Below the pieces are notes generated by a model, which saw only the letters and a program-made list of their open reading frames with translations, did not search any database and was not told where the DNA came from. From Thermoproteota archaeon (GTDB taxonomy: Archaea; Thermoproteota; Methanomethylicia; Methanomethylicales; Methanomethylicaceae), in contig JASFYL010000002.1 of NCBI GenBank assembly GCA_030055575.1, positions 1,780 through 65,779 of the forward strand: DNA of 64,000 nucleotides, in the 5' to 3' direction. The position numbers were made by a program, and so were the translations under genes. Positions 55,313-63,437 of the stretch are shown piece after piece (the first letter of the stretch is position 1; the number at the start of each line of letters is the position of its first letter).

Positions 55313-55467
55313 TATCATTTTTTTAAATAATATCCAATTATTCGGAAGTTTATTCCGAGCATCACATAGCTGTCCTTCAATACAGGCGTATTTTCTGATA
55401 AAATACTTTAAAAAATTAAGAATAGTGCTTAATAACTCTACTTGTTAAATATAGGGTGGGGAAAAAT

Positions 55468-56856
55468 ATGGGAGTTAGAAGATATACCAAAATGGCATAC
55501 AAGGATCCCGACGAGATGGTCTTCGGCCATGCCAAGTTCCCAGTGCTAGAGCACTGGAACGTGCAGTTCGGTGCTGGATACGTAGTCCCAGAGGTAAAGG
55601 TTGCCCCTGAACCGGGGACGGAGCGGAGCAAGGAAACACTAGTGAAGGAAATGGCATCCATCGCTGAGCAAGCAGCAGCAAGGGCAGTGGACATAGGTCT
55701 TCCGGCCTTCATGGTTGAGCAGGAGCACGTCTTCCAGCAGACATATCATGCTGACTGGGGATATGCGTGCACCCTCGCCCAGGCTGAGGTCTTGAAGAAA
55801 TACTACGACGAGTATGGCGTATGTGCAGCTCTGAGGCAGACCGTAGGAGACCTCAGAATTGAGGAGAAGGGCGGTCTCAGAGGCTCTGAGTACGACAATG
55901 CGATCGCACAGTGTGTCGAGGAGTGCTGCAAGGCCGGTGCTTCGGACATCTGTGCCGAGACCATGGGTGGAAAGTCGGTCCTTGACTATGGTGTAATGAG
56001 AGGAGATATCAGGGCAATCCTGTTCGGGATTGGATACCTAGGTAGCATAGACATGGAGTACTTCTGGAAGAGGACAGTCGCCCAGTGCGCCAAGTACGAC
56101 ACAAGACCCGCAGGCGACACCAACTGCTCAGGAGCGAACACATGCATGTACGTTGCCGGTGGGCTGCTGGGCAAGGATATGTCGCACACTGGTGCAGCGC
56201 TCGCGAGGGCAATATCAGCTGCGAGGAGCCTTGTGGCAGTAGAGTGTGGAGCGACAGGTCCTCTGAAGGACTGTGGCTACGAGAACACCATAATTAAGGC
56301 AATCACGGGTGTCCCGATCTGCCAGGAAGGCAAGAACGCAGTCTGTGCGCATGCAGATGTCATGGGCAACCTGACCTGCCAGGTGGTTGACTGCTGGAGC
56401 AACGAGTCAGTCTTCCACAGGGAGGAGATGGGTGGACCCACACCAGCAGTATGGCTGCAGGCGACAGGCTACGAGGCAGCGCTGATGAACACAGCCATCC
56501 AGACAGGAAACGCCAAGACCCTTAGAGACCTGTACACCTTCACGGATATGTTCAGGGACCCGCAAGGCACGCTGCTTGCGTATCCGAATGCATACAGGGT
56601 TGGTAAGGCAATCGTCGAGTATGGGAAGGACATATACCTGAGGGCAAGGGCAGCTGCACTCGAGGCTTCCAAGATAATGATGGAGGCATATGAGGCCAAG
56701 CTGCTGCAGATGACGAGGTTTGAGCTAGACACACTCAGGAAGTACACGAGCATACTCGAGAGTCTGCCGATGGAAGCAGAGATCTTCGTTGACCAGTGCA
56801 TGAGGGAATACCCGAGGAAGATACCGACATTTGACCCGAAGAGCTATGGATTGTGA
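55468..56856 (+). CDS. mtaB: Methanol:corrinoid protein Co-methyltransferase
   Basis: Appears collinear, from memory, with Methanosarcina MtaB (VRRYTKMAY..DEMVFG.., CGYENTIIKAITG, CAHADVMGNL, WSNESV). ATG 55468 is preceded by GGTGGGG. Confidence 0.95.
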   Translation: MGVRRYTKMAYKDPDEMVFGHAKFPVLEHWNVQFGAGYVVPEVKVAPEPGTERSKETLVKEMASIAEQAAARAVDIGLPAFMVEQEHVFQQTYHADWGYACTLAQAEVLKKYYDEYGVCAALRQTVGDLRIEEKGGLRGSEYDNAIAQCVEECCKAGASDICAETMGGKSVLDYGVMRGDIRAILFGIGYLGSIDMEYFWKRTVAQCAKYDTRPAGDTNCSGANTCMYVAGGLLGKDMSHTGAALARAISAARSLVAVECGATGPLKDCGYENTIIKAITGVPICQEGKNAVCAHADVMGNLTCQVVDCWSNESVFHREEMGGPTPAVWLQATGYEAALMNTAIQTGNAKTLRDLYTFTDMFRDPQGTLLAYPNAYRVGKAIVEYGKDIYLRARAAALEASKIMMEAYEAKLLQMTRFELDTLRKYTSILESLPMEAEIFVDQCMREYPRKIPTFDPKSYGL

Positions 56857-56867
56857 GGTGTGACAAA

Positions 56868-57698
56868 ATGGCATTGTTAGATTGGGCAAAGAAAGCAGAC
56901 TTTGACATGATCTTCAAGAGGTACAACGTCATCATCGAAGGTCCTGCGATCAAGCCAGAGGACGACCCGGATGTAAAGAAGGTCCTACCGACCGCCGAGC
57001 CGTTCAAGTCACTGGCGATGGCAGTGATCTTTGGTGACTCGGAAAAGGCAGTGCAGGCTGCGAAATCAGCTCTCGACAGGGGTACTGCTCCGCTAGACGT
57101 GATCGAGAAGGGTCTCGCAAAGGGCATGGATGCGGTCAGCGCGCTCTACGCGAAGGGTGCATACTTCCTGCCTGACATCATGCTCTCCGCCGACGCCATG
57201 ACTGCGGCAATGCAGGTTGCAGAGCAGAAGCTTGGCAGGGCGAGGGAGAAGAAGGGCACAGTCGTCTCGTTCGTCGCCGAGGGTGACCCGCACGACATCG
57301 GCAAGAACCTTGTCGTGATGTTCCTCAAGGCGAACGGCTTCGAGGCGATAGACCTGGGCAGGGATGTCCCGAACAGCCAAGTGGTCGACGCGGTAAAGAA
57401 GTACAAGCCAGTAATGCTGACTGGTACTGCGCTGATGACCACGACGATGACCGCGTTCCCCAAGGTCGCAGAGATGCTGAAGGAGCAGGGTCTCTCAGTC
57501 CCAGTATTCGGATGCGGTGGTGGTGCAGTCAAGAGGGACTTCGTTGAGTCCTATGATATGGGAGTCTACGGAGTCAAGGCATTCCACGCTCCGAAACTCG
57601 CAGAAGCTGCGCTTGCCGGCAAGAGCTTCAAGGATATCCGCAAGGAATATCCGAAGATCGTCGGGGAATTCGTTGCAGAGTATGCAGACAGGATGTAA
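56868..57698 (+). CDS. mtaC: Methanol-specific corrinoid protein
   Basis: B12-binding DxHxxG motif (GDPHDIGKN) and an N-terminal helical cap domain. ATG 56868 is preceded by GAGGTG. Immediately downstream of mtaB. Confidence 0.9.
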   Translation: MALLDWAKKADFDMIFKRYNVIIEGPAIKPEDDPDVKKVLPTAEPFKSLAMAVIFGDSEKAVQAAKSALDRGTAPLDVIEKGLAKGMDAVSALYAKGAYFLPDIMLSADAMTAAMQVAEQKLGRAREKKGTVVSFVAEGDPHDIGKNLVVMFLKANGFEAIDLGRDVPNSQVVDAVKKYKPVMLTGTALMTTTMTAFPKVAEMLKEQGLSVPVFGCGGGAVKRDFVESYDMGVYGVKAFHAPKLAEAALAGKSFKDIRKEYPKIVGEFVAEYADRM

Positions 57699-57847: not shown

Positions 57848-59488
57848 CTAAATAGCTTTACCCTTAAGTAGCTCGGAGAATTTGAATGCCTGGTTGGGGC
57901 AGACTTGCTGGCACCTCAGGCATGCCATTCCGTTGCAGAGCTCGGACTTTATAACTATCCTGAATTTGTCGCCTACAGGCTCCACAGTTATCGCTTTCTC
58001 CGGGCACTCCGCCATGCAGTTCCCGCACCCCGTGCACTCATCGAAATCGCCAACCAGAGTCACACCTATTTCCCTTAGAACTTTCAGACCCTTCTTGCCC
58101 AACTCAGGGATGTCCCTCATGAAGATCCTCTTTATCTCGACGCTGGAGGATCTTTTTGGCAACGGCTCGAACCCGTATCTCCGCAAGTACTCGTTGTATA
58201 TCGTGATCGGCATCCCTTCTTCCCAGTATGAGAGCTCGAGCGTATACACCTTTTCGAATACCTTTGAGGTGGCCAGCATTATGTGCTTCCCCCTGATGCT
58301 GTCAGCCATCGACTGCAGCTTGTCAAGCATCTCAGGATTCAAGACGATATCCTTTGCCATACCCAGCGAAGTGTTGCCGATCTGCATCACCCTCCTAGAG
58401 CAGGCAGGTATCTGTCCGACATCCATCGACTTGTTCGCGTCTACGTAGAAGCCTGAGGCTCCAGCCATGTAGGAGGTGTCAATGTCCATCATGCTTATAC
58501 CAGCCTCCTCGCAAAGCGATATGTGCCCCGCGCGGAAAGCCCCGATTGCCTTGCCTGCCTCAACGAGATCCCTCCTGGTGAAGTAGATTCCGTCCTGCAG
58601 GTAAAGCTTCCTGTCTTGCGTAGCTATATTCGGCAGCTTGATCAGACCCGTGTTCATCCCGACGGCAAGGACTGCGATCACGCCGGTGCCGGTGATTCCG
58701 AGCGCCTTACCGCTCATAGGACCATTATCGACCACCTCGCCCGAGTGTGGAAGTATCAGATCGCCCTTGTCAGCGAGCAGCTGTTCGTTTAGGACGGTGG
58801 TCCTCCAGCCGTTGGACTCTTGGTTCACATCGCAGATAGCTCCTGGCGAAGCCAGCATCCCCTTCTCGATCCTCTGACCCTCTATCGCAGGGCCCGCGGC
58901 AGCTGAGCAGGTATAGACCTCGCCGTCGATCACCAAAGCGATCTCCGCATTCGTTCCAAAGTCCGTCACGAGGGAGATGCCCCGCTTCTCGAGTACCCCT
59001 GATTTGACAAGCATCGCAAGAGCATCGGCTCCGATCTCGTGCTTCACGCCAGGCGGCACGTATACGTCCGCCTCCGGATTGACTTCAAGACCCACGGAAC
59101 CGGCCTTGATCACGCATGCGTTCCTCTCCGGCGGGGTGATGTTGAAGTCATGCATGGCGTGCTCTCCCCAGTATGCAAGATCCCGGACCTCAATATTTTG
59201 GAAGAGTGAAAGTTGCGTTGGGTTGCCGTCGACCGCAACTCTCTCGACCTTGGAGAGGTCTATTTCAAGCAGCCTAAGCAGAGAGTTTATCGTGTCGATT
59301 ATGAGCTTATGGGCGACCTCCTCGCCGACTTCCACCGCGAAGTGGAGATGGTCTATCACGTTTGCCCCGGGGAGGGGGTGTCTCAGGGTGATTGCGGTCC
59401 CCACGACTTCCTTTGTGTCTAGATCCAGCGCCTGAACCCTAATCCCGCTCGTACCAATGTCTATTGCGAGTCCGTACAAGGAATTCAA
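57848..59488 (-). CDS. ramA: Corrinoid protein reductive activase (RamA-like: ASKHA ATPase fold plus C-terminal 2x[4Fe-4S])
   Basis: N-terminus YGLAIDIGTSGIR (actin-like ATPase phosphate-1). C-terminal CTGCGNCMAECP and CLRCQQVCP. TTG start is uncertain by a few codons. Confidence 0.85.
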   Translation of the reverse strand: MNSLYGLAIDIGTSGIRVQALDLDTKEVVGTAITLRHPLPGANVIDHLHFAVEVGEEVAHKLIIDTINSLLRLLEIDLSKVERVAVDGNPTQLSLFQNIEVRDLAYWGEHAMHDFNITPPERNACVIKAGSVGLEVNPEADVYVPPGVKHEIGADALAMLVKSGVLEKRGISLVTDFGTNAEIALVIDGEVYTCSAAAGPAIEGQRIEKGMLASPGAICDVNQESNGWRTTVLNEQLLADKGDLILPHSGEVVDNGPMSGKALGITGTGVIAVLAVGMNTGLIKLPNIATQDRKLYLQDGIYFTRRDLVEAGKAIGAFRAGHISLCEEAGISMMDIDTSYMAGASGFYVDANKSMDVGQIPACSRRVMQIGNTSLGMAKDIVLNPEMLDKLQSMADSIRGKHIMLATSKVFEKVYTLELSYWEEGMPITIYNEYLRRYGFEPLPKRSSSVEIKRIFMRDIPELGKKGLKVLREIGVTLVGDFDECTGCGNCMAECPEKAITVEPVGDKFRIVIKSELCNGMACLRCQQVCPNQAFKFSELLKGKAI

Positions 59489-59569
59489 TCTCCATTCAGG
59501 ATTTTTATATCTACGATCTTAATGAATAGATATAAATGTATGTCATAAGTACTCTTTATCGTAAAAACT

Positions 59570-60166
59570 ATGTCGTCTTTTGAGCTGATCGTCGCGGATC
59601 TGATGGAGAGGATTGTAAACATAAAGGGCATGATAGACGCCACCCTCCTTCCGACGGAGCTGAAGAGGGAGATAATGGCATCAGAGATGTGTGAGGAGTC
59701 TAATTCGCAGGGCTTCTTCCTGAAGTACAATGCGGGTGTGAGGGAGGCGCTGAAGAGGGACAACCTGCTCGCTGTCCTCACAGACGAGAACTACACGTAT
59801 CCGCCGGAGCCTGTGGAGCTGATATACCTAGGGGACACCGTTGGAATGGAGATCAGGGACAAATCACTCCTGGATGTGTACAAGAGCGACAAGAACGCCA
59901 TGCTACTTGGAGACAGCTTCGTCATCTTCAAGGACAGATTGCCCCCGAACAGCATCAGGAAAGCCATGTCCGGAGAGATCAAGGTCTTCATACCCCCAAT
60001 GAGCGTGGGGATAGAGGCGGTCGACGGGGTCCACGGTCTCGTTCTCGCTATGCCCTCAACCGCCACGAATGAACTCCTCAAGGATTGGCTGAGGGAGAGA
60101 GGCTTCGATGTCTCAAACAAGAACCTGGGGGTAGTCCTTATAGGGTTCAACATTCACAAAGTATAA
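59570..60166 (+). CDS. Hypothetical protein (198 aa) in the methyltransferase island
   Basis: ATG start about 35 nt downstream of a TATA-like ATAGATATAAAT. 7 nt upstream of the next gene. No recognisable motif. Confidence 0.55.
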   Translation: MSSFELIVADLMERIVNIKGMIDATLLPTELKREIMASEMCEESNSQGFFLKYNAGVREALKRDNLLAVLTDENYTYPPEPVELIYLGDTVGMEIRDKSLLDVYKSDKNAMLLGDSFVIFKDRLPPNSIRKAMSGEIKVFIPPMSVGIEAVDGVHGLVLAMPSTATNELLKDWLRERGFDVSNKNLGVVLIGFNIHKV

Positions 60167-60173
60167 TTTGTGA

Positions 60174-61187
60174 ATGCATATGGGAATAGTTGAGGATGCT
60201 TTGTGCCTCAAAGAGACAAACAGGATCGCCGTGGCGCCTGTCATAACCGCGAGGAGAGAGCTCTTCGAAGAACTAGCAAGGGCTAACGAGAGCCGACTGA
60301 AACGGTTTGATGGATTTCTGCTGCACCCGGCGGTCTTCGACTCCGGATGGGTCTACCTGCCATCAAAGCCCTCGCTGCAGGAGCCCGTCCAAGTTATGAA
60401 GAATCTAGACGACTACGAGGAGCTGAGCGCGCTGGGTCCAGTGGAGTATGCACTGAAGGTACACAAAGAAAGAGACTTCATACAGGACCTGAAAGACAGG
60501 CTAAAGAGCGCCCCTGGGGTGGTCGCAAACTTCGTTGACGAGACCGCCAGCTGGGGCGTGGCAAACTACTGCGGCGCAATGGGCATCACCCCGATAGGAT
60601 TCATCTCATACTACAGAGGGTTCAACGACACGATGAAGGACATGGCGAGGGATCAGAGAGCCGTATTGAATGCGGCTATGGACCTTGCTGTTGAGTACCC
60701 CAAGTTCCTGGTCGAGTTCGCAAAGTCTTGCAAGGTCCCGAGGGTTTGGGTATCCTTCGCAAACGCGACCCCGGCGATGGTAGGTGACTACTACTTCGAA
60801 AGGATAGTGTGGCCTTCGGCGAAAACCATGATAGAGAGGATAATAAAGGAGGGGGCGATGCCAATAATACAGTTCGACGAGGAGGTAAAGAACCTGAAAT
60901 TCCTCGCCCAGCTCCCCCCCAAGGCGTTCGCGGTGCACGTCTCAGGAGATTCTGACCCCATAAGGGATGCTCAGTCGCTCTCCGGTCACGCGGCGGTGTT
61001 GGGTAACTTTAAGGTGCCAGCCGATCAGCCTGAGCAGGAAAGGATCAGGGCAGTAAAGGAGAAGCTCAGCATCAACAAGGTCAAGAACCTGATCGTGAGC
61101 ACCGAAGGCGGGAGCCCGTTCATAATGACGGAGCATAACCTGGAAAAAGTAGGCGTATTCGAACCGTTCTTCTCGGGCGCTCAGTGA
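60174..61187 (+). CDS. Uroporphyrinogen decarboxylase (URO-D/MtaA) family paralog lacking the zinc-ligand motif
   Basis: By-eye alignment to the in-window MtaA covers the N-terminal ..NRIAVAPV.., the central helices and C-terminal blocks. The MtaA HICG position reads QFDEE, and the APACGIAP position reads STEGGSPF. Confidence 0.6.
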   Translation: MHMGIVEDALCLKETNRIAVAPVITARRELFEELARANESRLKRFDGFLLHPAVFDSGWVYLPSKPSLQEPVQVMKNLDDYEELSALGPVEYALKVHKERDFIQDLKDRLKSAPGVVANFVDETASWGVANYCGAMGITPIGFISYYRGFNDTMKDMARDQRAVLNAAMDLAVEYPKFLVEFAKSCKVPRVWVSFANATPAMVGDYYFERIVWPSAKTMIERIIKEGAMPIIQFDEEVKNLKFLAQLPPKAFAVHVSGDSDPIRDAQSLSGHAAVLGNFKVPADQPEQERIRAVKEKLSINKVKNLIVSTEGGSPFIMTEHNLEKVGVFEPFFSGAQ

Positions 61188-62230
61188 TGGTGGTGGAGCT
61201 CGGCCACAGACATCCCATACCTGCCCGAGATCTCCTTTATCTTTTCCTCGAGGAACTCTCCCATTTTTTTGGAGTCTACATTCCTAACTGCCATGAATAA
61301 GGAAAGCTTTACCTCCTTCGATGCAGAAGGGAGGTCTCCGGAGAGTTCAACCCCAATTGAGGGATCAACTAGGCTAGCCTTGAACCCTCCTCCGTTGGTC
61401 TCAGCGTAAGCCTTGATGTGACCGACGAGCTTCCCTGCATCCTCGACGCACCTCTTGCCGACTTCTCCCAAGATCTCGGCAACTATCGACCTTACTTCGC
61501 TTGGGGGCACGGGGACCTCGGACTTCAGGATCCCTGAGAAGTCGGCTTTTCCTACCTCGGAAGCGACTACAGAATCCTCCCCCTCGCCAACGGGAGTGTC
61601 CAGCTCGATCTTCTCCTGCAGGAGGCACTCGAGGAGGTCCCTGATTCCCTCTCCCGTAACCGACGAGATCCCTATCACCCTGGCCTCTGGGCGCATCTCC
61701 TTAAGCGCTGAGAGTACCAACGGAAGCTCGAACTTCTTGTCGACCTTGTCAACCTTTGTCACGGCAAGGATCTCGGCGTCGCGCGCCTGCTTTGTCAGGA
61801 AGTCCTTGAACTCGGCGAGGAGCAGCTTGAAGCGATATCCATCAACTAGGGCGACCGTAGGGGAGTACTCTAGCCTAGGCACAATGTACGAGGCTTGGAC
61901 GAAGAACCTCTTGACCTGGTTTGGGAGAGCCACCCCCGTCGGCTCTACGAAGATGATGTCCGGATCGAACTCCTCTATGACCCCCTTTATTGTGGAGACG
62001 AGATCGCTGCCCAAGCTGCAGCATATGCATCCGCCAAGGATGCGCTTAGCCTTCAGCCCAGAGCCCTTCACGAATTCGCCATCAACATCAACATCCCCGA
62101 TCTCGTTAACAATTACTGCCGTCTTCTTGCCCGTCCTCTGCGCCTCCATAGCCATCTTTATGATGGAGCTCGTCTTGCCGCTGCCCAAGAAACCAGAGAT
62201 CTGGATCAATCTCGCCATTAGAATCGCCAT
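61181..62230 (-). CDS. CobW/COG0523-family G3E P-loop GTPase (putative metallochaperone) with C-terminal His4
   Basis: GFLGSGKT P-loop, GCICCS (CxCC) metal motif, TKVDK (NKxD-like), C-terminus ELHHHH. Only the C-terminal 349 codons of the 750-aa ORF are accepted. Confidence 0.8.
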   Translation of the reverse strand: MAILMARLIQISGFLGSGKTSSIIKMAMEAQRTGKKTAVIVNEIGDVDVDGEFVKGSGLKAKRILGGCICCSLGSDLVSTIKGVIEEFDPDIIFVEPTGVALPNQVKRFFVQASYIVPRLEYSPTVALVDGYRFKLLLAEFKDFLTKQARDAEILAVTKVDKVDKKFELPLVLSALKEMRPEARVIGISSVTGEGIRDLLECLLQEKIELDTPVGEGEDSVVASEVGKADFSGILKSEVPVPPSEVRSIVAEILGEVGKRCVEDAGKLVGHIKAYAETNGGGFKASLVDPSIGVELSGDLPSASKEVKLSLFMAVRNVDSKKMGEFLEEKIKEISGRYGMSVAELHHHH

Positions 62231-62315: not shown

Positions 62316-63437
62316 ATGAACGCGAAAGAAAGAGTCTTGAATGCACTTTCAAACGAGCCTGTCGACAAGACGCCGGTAACCTGTTTCACGCAGGTCGGCA
62401 CGGTCGAAGCAATGGAGAAGACTGGAGCCAAGTGGCCTGAGGCACACACAGACCCGAGCAAGATGGTAGCTCTGGGCACCTCGCTGTACAAGCTTGTGGG
62501 TCTTGAGGCGGCGAGGATACCGTTCTGCTTGACCGTCGAGGCGGAGGCAATGGGCTGCAAGGTCGACATGGGAACGGTCAACAGGCAGCCTTCTATCAGG
62601 GCGCCTGCATTCGAGTCCCCCTCTCTGGTTAACATCGACATGGGATTCCTAGACAAGGGGAGGGTGCCAGTCGTCCTTGAGGCGATCCGTCTGCTTAAGA
62701 AGGAGAACATAGACGCCCCACTGATCGTAGGAATCACAGGACCATTTACACTGAGCGGGCACCTAATCGAGACAGAGAGGCTAGTAAAGTTGATGAAAAC
62801 TAAGCCCGAGGAAGTGGAGAGCGTTGTCGACAAGGTGACGGACGCAAGCATAGCATATGTTGAGAGGATAGTTGAGGCAGGGGCAGATGCGATTACGGTT
62901 AACGAGCCCTCTGCTGCGCCGGAGCTGATCGACCCGTTATCATTCAAGTCTACGATCAAGCCGAGATTGCAGTACTTAGCCAACAACATAAAGATCAAGA
63001 AAGTCCTGCACATCTGCGGTGCCTCGCTGCCGATCGTAGGAGACATGGCCGAGTGCGGCTTCGACGGCATCAGTATTGAGGACAAAGTCGACCTCATCAA
63101 GGCGAGAGAAGTCTTGAAGGGCGGCGCTGGACCTAGAGCCGGCGGTGGAATGAGGATGGGTGGTGGATTCGGTGGTGGATTCGGTGGTGGATTCGGTGGT
63201 GGATTCGGTGGTGCAAGACCGGGCGCTACTGGAACTGCGAAGACCGTAAAGATCGTCGGCAATGTCTCCACTGCCAAGACGCTCTTCACCGGAAAGCCCG
63301 AGGAGGTCAAGGCGGAGGCGCTCGCAGCGCTGAAAAACGGGACGGACCTGCTCGCCCCTGCATGCGGCATAGCGCCAGGCAGCCCCCTTGCAAACATCCG
63401 CGCTATGGTGGAAGCAAGGGACGAGTACTGCAAGTAA
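62316..63437 (+). CDS. mtaA: Methylcobamide:coenzyme M methyltransferase (MT2) with Gly/Phe-rich insertion
   Basis: Appears collinear, from memory, with Methanosarcina MtaA. Zn ligands are present (VLHICGAS, APACGIAP). The C-terminus ends EARDEY. ATG is preceded by AAAGGGGA. Confidence 0.9.
   Translation: MNAKERVLNALSNEPVDKTPVTCFTQVGTVEAMEKTGAKWPEAHTDPSKMVALGTSLYKLVGLEAARIPFCLTVEAEAMGCKVDMGTVNRQPSIRAPAFESPSLVNIDMGFLDKGRVPVVLEAIRLLKKENIDAPLIVGITGPFTLSGHLIETERLVKLMKTKPEEVESVVDKVTDASIAYVERIVEAGADAITVNEPSAAPELIDPLSFKSTIKPRLQYLANNIKIKKVLHICGASLPIVGDMAECGFDGISIEDKVDLIKAREVLKGGAGPRAGGGMRMGGGFGGGFGGGFGGGFGGARPGATGTAKTVKIVGNVSTAKTLFTGKPEEVKAEALAALKNGTDLLAPACGIAPGSPLANIRAMVEARDEYCK
63159..63214 (+). 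repeat. Perfect tandem repeat, 12-nt unit GGTGGTGGATTC x4 plus a partial fifth copy, inside mtaA
   Basis: Read directly: units at 63159-63170, 63171-63182, 63183-63194 and 63195-63206, then GGTGGTGC. Encodes GGGFGGGFGGGFGGGFGG. Confidence 0.95.

Follow-up and report, generated by a model that had tools for sequence, protein, structure and literature searches.

The methanol methyltransferase island of a Methanosuratincola-like archaeon (Methanomethylicia) contains two adjacent genes, both real and conserved, for which our literature search found no description of the protein product. Judged by profile comparison, the larger one encodes a shortened, zinc-free relative of the MT1-type substrate:corrinoid methyltransferases (337 aa, hereafter F337), while the smaller encodes a 198-aa protein (F198a) which belongs to an undescribed protein family. 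We tentatively favour a reading, plausible but held well short of confidence, in which F337 acts on the corrinoid protein MtaC, either as an MT1-type enzyme that needs no zinc or as a docking barrel, with F198a assisting the activase RamA. Methanomethylicia were the first cultured methanogens outside Euryarchaeota, and they reduce methyl compounds with H2. If F337 were an active MT1, an unrecognised methyl donor would feed their methanol pathway and their substrate range would be wider; were it inert and used only for docking, it would illustrate how a methyltransferase can become a chaperone. The MT1 class itself is already known, so what is new here is the shortened zinc-free variant and the F198 family.

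In the window, i.e., the whole 64,000-nt stretch of DNA that was analysed, the island runs in the order mtaB-mtaC / ramA / F198a / F337 / cobW / mtaA. The mtaB-mtaC pair (55456..57698, plus strand; mtaB 55456-56856, mtaC 56853-57698) encodes the methanol:corrinoid methyltransferase and its corrinoid protein (PF12176, E 1.6e-186; PF02607 and PF02310), and MtaC is the sole corrinoid protein of the island. On the minus strand, ramA (57848..59488) encodes a RACo-family, ATP-dependent reductive activase of corrinoid proteins, which scores 783 bits against TIGR04270 (cut-off 500), matches PF14574 and PF17651, and has two [4Fe-4S] clusters at its C-terminus. The first-pass annotation had placed two plus-strand ORFs 7 nt apart between ramA and a CobW-like gene, and their coordinates were confirmed: F198a at 59570..60166 and F337 at 60174..61187. 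Homologs of F337 start with MGI, which suggests that its start is at 60180 (335 aa, as in P0001), making the gap 13 nt. The CobW-like gene (61181..62230, minus strand), an ORF whose orthologs match PF02492, encodes a CobW/COG0523-type G3E GTPase; it is convergent with F337 and overlaps its stop by 7 nt. Last comes mtaA (62316..63437, plus strand; NF040654, 433 bits with a cut-off of 400), the methylcobamide:CoM methyltransferase gene, and its product has an intact HxC...C zinc site and a Gly/Phe-rich insertion. The 81 nt between the divergent ramA and F198a (59489..59569, no strand assigned) are AT-rich, contain TATA-like runs (TTTTTATAT and ATATAAAT), and are a putative promoter region common to both genes.

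F337 has a URO-D-type (beta/alpha)8 TIM barrel in its AlphaFold2 model (pLDDT 93.5), with human UROD (E 1.3e-7, TM 0.60-0.63) as the top Foldseek matches and Methanosarcina mazei MtaA (4ay7/4ay8) at E ~1e-7 and TM 0.62-0.64. This relationship is visible only at the fold or profile level: the window's F337 does not match Pfam URO-D (PF01208) even at E<=1, and 9 of the 17 members of its family do (best E 2.2e-17). It also has no NCBIfam match at E<=1, including TIGR01463, NF040654, and hemE (TIGR01464), which leaves the decarboxylase-type enzyme that had been proposed without support. An alignment with the in-window MtaA had been made by eye along the whole length; the superfamily fold behind it is borne out by Foldseek, but the pairwise similarity is not significant (BLASTP E 0.27), and a profile search with F337 does not detect the MtaA of its own genome. 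F337 had accordingly been called a MtaA paralog, a label that does not hold, since its nearest relatives are zinc-free MT1s. The only significant PDB sequence match of its profile (hmmsearch) is the zinc-free MT1 CdmB (E 7.6e-10), with no MtaA or UroD chains matched. Likewise, hhalign gives a probability of 99.5% (E 1e-22, 326 columns) against four archaeal MT1-like proteins of 397-444 aa, versus 3% against the MtaA family.

The replacement of the zinc ligands in F337, which had been noticed by eye, is supported by profile alignment. The MtaA-family alignment has H232, C234, and C350 as invariant residues. A direct hhalign alignment sets F337 PIIQFD opposite MtaA VLHICG, with I231/Q233 at the ligand positions, and a transitive alignment via the MT1-like proteins sets the three MtaA ligands opposite Q233, D235, and E311-G312. 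Either way, all three are replaced and the His-x-Cys...Cys site is absent, so MtaA-style thiol activation is unlikely, and with it CoM methylation in the manner of MtaA, as had been expected. A BLASTP pairing of F337 H255 with the MtaA zinc His was rejected: judged by the transitive alignment and by how hhalign orders the strands, it is displaced by one strand. F337 has other invariant His/Cys residues (H51, H97, C133, and H255), so an alternative metal site is possible. In total, 36 columns are invariant in the F337 family, and the polar ones at strand ends (T25, H51, Y132-C133, Q233, H255, N278, and S309) argue for a maintained pocket.

Zinc-free MT1s with a URO-D fold also include the O-demethylase enzymes MtoB, OdmB, and MtvB. 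In this class, the cobalamin domain of the corrinoid protein docks atop the barrel and the methyl group is handed to Co(I). F337 shares the URO-D TIM barrel of CdmB, the chloromethane:corrinoid MT1 of Acetobacterium dehalogenans (PDB 9rui), along with the lack of a His-x-Cys...Cys site, and the CdmB strand-5 motif TPLLSFQGE aligns with F337 PIIQFDEE. However, CdmB is 429 aa long, and F337 is ~60-100 residues shorter than CdmB and the archaeal relatives, the latter having long insertions between F337 residues ~55 and ~110 (hhalign). Missing from F337 are the first-strand extensions which form the dimer interface and substrate tunnels in CdmB (PMC13222342). The pockets differ too: the CdmB cavity is described as aromatic and hydrophobic, whereas the conserved pocket residues of F337 are polar (His, Cys, Gln, Asp). 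Finally, all four archaeal MT1-like relatives abut a gene for a 210-221-aa corrinoid protein (two also adjoin RACo), but F337 has no dedicated corrinoid-protein gene beside it at any locus examined. It is instead embedded in the mtaBC/mtaA island, where the nearest such gene is mtaC in the mtaBC operon.

These relationships bear on what F337 might do, for which the first-pass annotation had suggested a methyltransferase with a different acceptor or donor. A different acceptor would make F337 an MT2-like enzyme which passes the methyl group of methyl-MtaC to a non-thiol compound, e.g., for biosynthetic C1 supply. Such a role would explain the loss of the zinc ligands, the host island makes methyl-MtaC, and F337 has the size of MtaA/MtbA-type MT2s, with which it shares the fold, the island, and a strand-7 GN motif. 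We nonetheless consider it improbable, as the profile relationships of F337 are of the MT1 type and not the MT2 type, and Pfam and NCBIfam searches found neither an acceptor-binding domain nor pterin-binding homology. The MT1 relationship favours a different donor over a different acceptor.

Both genes are under purifying selection, with dN far below dS. F198a orthologs are 81% identical in a sister species and 61% in a more distant one, compared to 64% and 45% for F337 and 96% and 80% for MtaB, and no gene of the island evolves faster than F337. The order ramA | F198a -> F337 | cobW | mtaA / mtaCB is kept in five loci (L001, L005, L006, L007, and L061), in all of which cobW adjoins F337. In a rearranged locus (L003), F198a and F337 still adjoin mtaCB and ramA, with F198a opening the mtaBC operon, and ramA is divergent from F198a in every locus which shows both (L001, L003, L005, L006, and L061). 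The proposed association with corrinoid methyltransferase genes thus holds across rearranged loci, and linkage to ramA/mtaCB persists down to 33-47% identity. The tight F198a-F337 spacing (7 nt or overlap) is also conserved among loci. F337 orthologs occur in 11 of the 32 genomes of the archaeon's family, exactly those which carry mtaB, and in none of the 21 others, though these genomes are related and hence not independent observations. Some genomes (G104, G072, P0016, and P0017) carry a split or truncated F337, a finding which fits a dispensable or non-catalytic role. Homolog searches found no close relatives of F337 or F198a outside Methanomethylicia-type contigs.

F198a is confidently modelled (AlphaFold2 pLDDT 94.1), but it has no match in Pfam, NCBIfam, PDB sequences, PDB folds, or BFVD folds. 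It was correctly seen to lack any recognisable motif, including DxHxxG, and it matches neither PF02310 nor PF02607. Across 51 F198 family members there is no conserved Cys or His, and no Fe-S, nucleotide, or B12 motif was found. Its best fold match, a nitroreductase (E 0.28, TM 0.36), is below threshold, and we rejected a nitroreductase-like fold for the family: all such Foldseek matches have E of at least 0.28, TM 0.31-0.39, and rmsd >12 Å, and the beta-strand content of F198 is higher. Any link to CblC, a B12 chaperone with the nitroreductase fold, would therefore be speculation. A relationship to Mmp17 was also rejected (hhalign probability 0.1%).

Where F198 genes sit is a point absent from the first-pass annotation, as was the wider family. 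Homologs of F198a at 53-86% identity form a clade (support 100/100) in which every member is inside an mta island. In 29 related genomes, its paralog F198b follows a RACo/AcsV-like activase gene on the same strand at a distance of 32-84 nt, and in two loci (L058 and L010) its start overlaps the RACo stop. Both Methanomethylicia clades therefore have a RACo-family neighbour: F198a has ramA, and F198b has the AcsV-like gene. Counted across genomes, again related ones, 54 of the 55 which are F198-positive have a RACo-family gene, versus 155 of 401 overall. We found no annotation for the F198 family anywhere, and its repeated placement beside ATP-dependent reductive activases offers a first idea of its role that is concrete enough to test. 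We know of no described accessory subunit of RamA or RACo.

Under our preferred reading, F198a and F337 would together be a module, specific to this lineage, which assists the methanol:coenzyme-M methyltransferase system in Methanomethylicia. In it, F337 would dock on MtaC and methylate its Co(I) form with a methyl group that does not come from methanol, after which MtaA would transfer the methyl group from MtaC to CoM. RamA would repair oxidised Co(II), and F198a would serve as its partner, e.g., as an adaptor between activase and target, and not as a cofactor-carrying enzyme. A catalytic role for F337, its partnership with MtaC, and the cooperation of F198a with RamA are all inferences. Several points count against this. 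In Methanosarcina, MtaC is tightly bound to MtaB, and it would be out of the ordinary for it to serve another MT1 as well. Every MT1-like relative examined has a corrinoid-protein gene to itself, which F337 lacks. F337 has also lost the MT1 extensions and shows the fastest evolution in the island. The cultured relative Methanosuratincola petrocarbonis is also reported to use only methanol and monomethylamine (PMC12244365).

There is a second explanation, which we regard as possible but doubtful: F337 would be an inert, MT1-derived docking barrel (a pseudoenzyme) which holds the cobalamin domain of MtaC, while F198a would aid Co(II) reduction by RamA or, with the CobW-type GTPase, cofactor loading. 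The module would then serve MtaBC assembly/reactivation and bring in no new substrate. A scaffold for MtaC had been among the roles first suggested, and as a role for F337 it is possible. This explanation draws on the strict co-occurrence of F337 with mtaB, its lack of a dedicated corrinoid protein, the lost extensions, the rapid evolution and occasional truncation, the activases beside both F198 paralogs, the position of F198a at the head of the mtaBC operon and divergent from ramA in L003, and the conserved G3E GTPase gene beside F337. However, the many invariant polar residues at the strand ends of the F337 barrel suggest a maintained ligand pocket, and the CobW-type GTPase may do no more than provide MtaA and MtaB with zinc. 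Since our homolog searches found close relatives only on Methanomethylicia-type contigs, other methanol users appear to manage without the module; to our knowledge, Methanosarcina is among those which appear to run MtaBC/RamA without anything like F198a/F337.

A bolder version, which we think unlikely, joins F198a, F337, RamA, and the CobW-type GTPase into a dedicated machine for corrinoid-protein maturation/reactivation, with F337 as a MtaC-capturing pseudoenzyme and F198 proteins as hitherto unnoticed partner subunits of RACo-family activases. F198b and its RACo-type activase sit within the MCR-activation operon (mmp3-mmp6-mmp17-mmp7-A2), which hints at an accessory factor common to the reductive activation of cobalt and nickel tetrapyrrole enzymes.

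Beyond Methanomethylicia, the F198 family is broad, with ~170 clusters at 50% identity in several archaeal phyla and in three separate lineages of methyl-reducing methanogens. Relatives from Nitrososphaerales, Asgard archaea, and Bathyarchaeia have unrelated genes beside them. Outside Methanomethylicia, the neighbours include genes for LeuRS, an aminotransferase, and a P-type ATPase; in Methanosphaera, they include flavoprotein/ferredoxin genes. A related-locus search with the Methanonatronarchaeum member found nothing. No RACo genes lie beside F198 relatives outside Methanomethylicia, which counts against F198a as a RamA accessory in our preferred reading. The unrelated neighbours, together with the broken copies of F337, would also suit a view of the two genes as mere passengers, F198a having a general housekeeping or redox-related role unconnected with corrinoid proteins, and F337 being a decaying MT1 remnant. 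We give that view little credence: selection maintains both genes, their ramA/mtaCB linkage survives rearrangement, no member of the F198a clade lies outside an mta island, and the tight spacing of the pair is conserved. As minor observations on the family, one F198 cluster is labelled 'Eubacterium sp.' and most likely comes from a mis-binned Methanosphaera contig, and several F198b matches contain in-frame TAG/TAA/TGA codons, which we judged to be match-boundary effects.

F337, a 337-aa ORF (60174-61187, plus strand), is very probably a URO-D-fold protein without zinc ligands, derived from substrate:corrinoid methyltransferases (MT1) and tied to the methanol methyltransferase island, and F198a, the 198-aa ORF before it (59570-60166, plus strand), very probably represents an island-specific clade of an undescribed family. 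The two are 7 nt apart; homologs of F337 (P0001) begin MGI..., which suggests an alternative start at 60180 that would give a 13-nt gap and a 335-aa protein. Curated models assigned the flanking genes: ramA (TIGR04270, 783 bits) and F198a diverge from an AT-rich spacer of 81 nt, a CobW-type GTPase gene is convergent to F337 and overlaps its stop by 7 nt, and the window also holds MtaA (NF040654, 433 bits), MtaB (PF12176, E 1.6e-186) and MtaC (B12-binding domains). Close homologs of the pair are named Candidatus Methanosuratincola or Methanomethylicia, so the host is a methyl-reducing methanogen of the Thermoproteota.

Orthologs of F198a and F337 are 81% and 64% identical, respectively, where they lie on M. 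petrocarbonis-type contigs; in another, more distant lineage the values drop to 61% and 45%. For both genes, dN falls far below dS. The order ramA / F198a -> F337 / cobW / mtaA / mtaC-mtaB is kept at related loci L001/L002, L005, L006, L007 and L061, and persists at F337 identity as low as 33%. Loci L003/L004 are rearranged: F198a heads an F198a-78aa-mtaB-mtaC operon with ramA still divergent from it, and F337 is convergent to mtaC, so both genes stay in the island despite the changed order. F337 orthologs occur in 11 of 32 genomes of the host's taxonomic family, exactly the 11 with mtaB; these span four genera, with presence and absence both found within genera. As the genes are physically linked, this co-occurrence means that the island comes and goes as a unit. 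It is improbable that F198a and F337 are simply passenger genes.

Elsewhere in these islands, the window MtaA has a Gly/Phe-rich insertion (GGGFGGGF..., 63117-63245); MtaA of M. petrocarbonis has the same length (373 aa), and 350-aa orthologs from more distant lineages lack the insertion. Small DUF6951 genes recur in corrinoid methyltransferase neighbourhoods (L003 3950-4273, L003 7453-7779, L006 16913-17005), one of those in L003 lying directly upstream of the F337 ortholog.

The window F337 sequence matched nothing in Pfam or NCBIfam, and BLASTP against the in-window MtaA was not significant (E 0.27); PF01208 was matched by 9 of 17 F337 family members (best E 2.2e-17). The AlphaFold2 model (pLDDT 93.5) has UROD and M. 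mazei MtaA as its closest PDB folds, with moderate TM-scores (0.60-0.64), and by this prediction F337 is a divergent URO-D barrel. At the sequence level, the only solved structure matched by the family profile was CdmB (E 7.6e-10), a recently described zinc-free chloromethane:corrinoid MT1 from Acetobacterium (PMC13222342); the profile matched no MtaA or UROD chains among solved structures, nor the MtaA of its own genome. In other Thermoproteota it matched 397-513-aa ORFs (E 1e-14 to 1e-6). All four of these MT1-like ORFs that were fetched directly adjoin a 210-221-aa corrinoid-protein gene, which is the canonical MT1 arrangement, and two also adjoin a gene for RACo, an ATP-dependent corrinoid activase.

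Profile-profile comparison gave 99.5% for the F337 family against MT1-like proteins (E 1e-22, 326 columns) but 3% against the MtaA family (E 0.015), with MT1-like against MtaA at 98.6%. These values make F337 an offshoot of the MT1 clade that has been shortened, rather than the MtaA paralog proposed in the first-pass annotation, and we give little credence to an MT2-like (MtaA-type) role with a non-thiol acceptor. That annotation had also paired QFDEE with HICG and STEGG with APACG of MtaA, and here direct and transitive alignments agree with it: opposite MtaA H232/C234/C350, F337 has Q233/D235/E311-G312 (or I231/Q233). The MT1-like relatives lack the zinc ligands too. The decarboxylase role suggested in the annotation found no support. 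Thirty-six columns are invariant in F337, many at strand ends (T25, H51, Y132-C133, Q233, H255, N278, S309), as would fit a conserved pocket. Compared with CdmB, F337 lacks 60-100 residues between early strands, where CdmB has its dimer and substrate tunnels (PMC13222342). We tentatively prefer a role in which F337 would act on MtaC as a zinc-independent MT1-type protein and F198a would assist RamA.

A doubtful alternative, nearly as likely as this preferred one, is that the module is non-catalytic and serves maturation or repair. It is favoured by F337 having no corrinoid protein of its own, by its loss of the MT1 extensions, by its rapid evolution (the fastest among island genes) and by its occasional breakage. 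The gene is split in genome G104 (G104:C14:258641-259632; two frames) and broken in G072 (G072:C49:4551-5303), and orthologs P0016 and P0017 are truncated, broken orthologs of relatives being ~210 aa where truncated; these could be pseudogenes or assembly errors. Separately, in G179, a Methanomethylicaceae genome without mtaB, a 397-aa MT1-like URO-D protein adjoins a 210-aa corrinoid protein (L062 1211-3015), which suggests methyl substrates beyond methanol in this family.

F198a had no match in Pfam, NCBIfam, PDB sequences, PDB folds or BFVD (model pLDDT 94.1). Searched with a profile, 1.84 billion representatives yielded 172 clusters of ~190-aa proteins as the F198 family; all are labelled hypothetical, and named members belong to Methanomethylicota, Bathyarchaeia, Asgard lineages, Nitrososphaerales, Methanonatronarchaeum and Methanosphaera. 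E39 and G92 are the sole invariant residues and the family has no conserved Cys or His, so a metal or Fe-S cofactor is unlikely. In a maximum-likelihood tree, all mta-island copies form one clade (100/100), separate from a RACo-linked clade. None of the papers searched describes F198a or F337; F337 would extend a known kind of enzyme, and the gene context of F198, an uncharacterised family, now allows ideas on its role to be tested.

The host genome carries a second paralog, F198b, which is cut by contig ends (C97 = L010 1-1750; C79 = L009 1-366); a RACo-type activase gene precedes it, and the two genes overlap, stop to start. In the complete relative G008 (L058 6998-14531), F198b ends the operon Mmp3-Mmp6-Mmp17-Mmp7-A2-like ABC ATPase-RACo/AcsV-like-F198b, i.e., Methanosuratincola MCR-activation genes share an operon with a RACo/AcsV-type [2Fe-2S] ATP-dependent activase and F198b. 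A 2025 structure paper makes no mention of a corrinoid-type activase within the Ni-F430 activation operon (PMC12176620). At L045, ORFs upstream of the RACo-F198 pair resemble the G008 operon by size and order alone. In 29 genomes, coordinate comparison places the RACo C-terminal domain and F198b on one strand, with F198b 32-84 nt downstream. A cluster of RACo, corrinoid protein and MtaA-like genes in a sister family (L044, L003) includes a b-type copy. A RACo-family gene is present in 54 of 55 F198-positive genomes versus 155 of 401 overall, and outside the home family in 22 of 23 versus 123 of 369; these counts span non-independent kin, so the link is suggestive only. In-frame TAG codons flagged inside F198b matches of pyrrolysine-using lineages (G032, G284, G024, G144, G290, G218) are provisionally taken as match-boundary effects.

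Outside Methanomethylicia, F198 neighbours are unrelated: LeuRS, an aminotransferase, a P-type ATPase, a GFO/IDH oxidoreductase and one B12-radical-SAM gene. Judged from gene neighbourhoods, a theme of low-potential electron transfer and reductive activation recurs without being universal. In Methanosphaera, two to three tandem F198 copies lie within an operon of FMN-reductase-like (Isf-like) and 4Fe-4S proteins (L071 7691-11503; also L070, L072-L077), and the public label 'Eubacterium sp.' on one cluster probably stems from mis-binning of a Methanosphaera contig. In G388 (L056 5655-7486), a B12-binding radical-SAM gene is directly upstream of an F198-family gene, co-directional and with a 36-nt gap.
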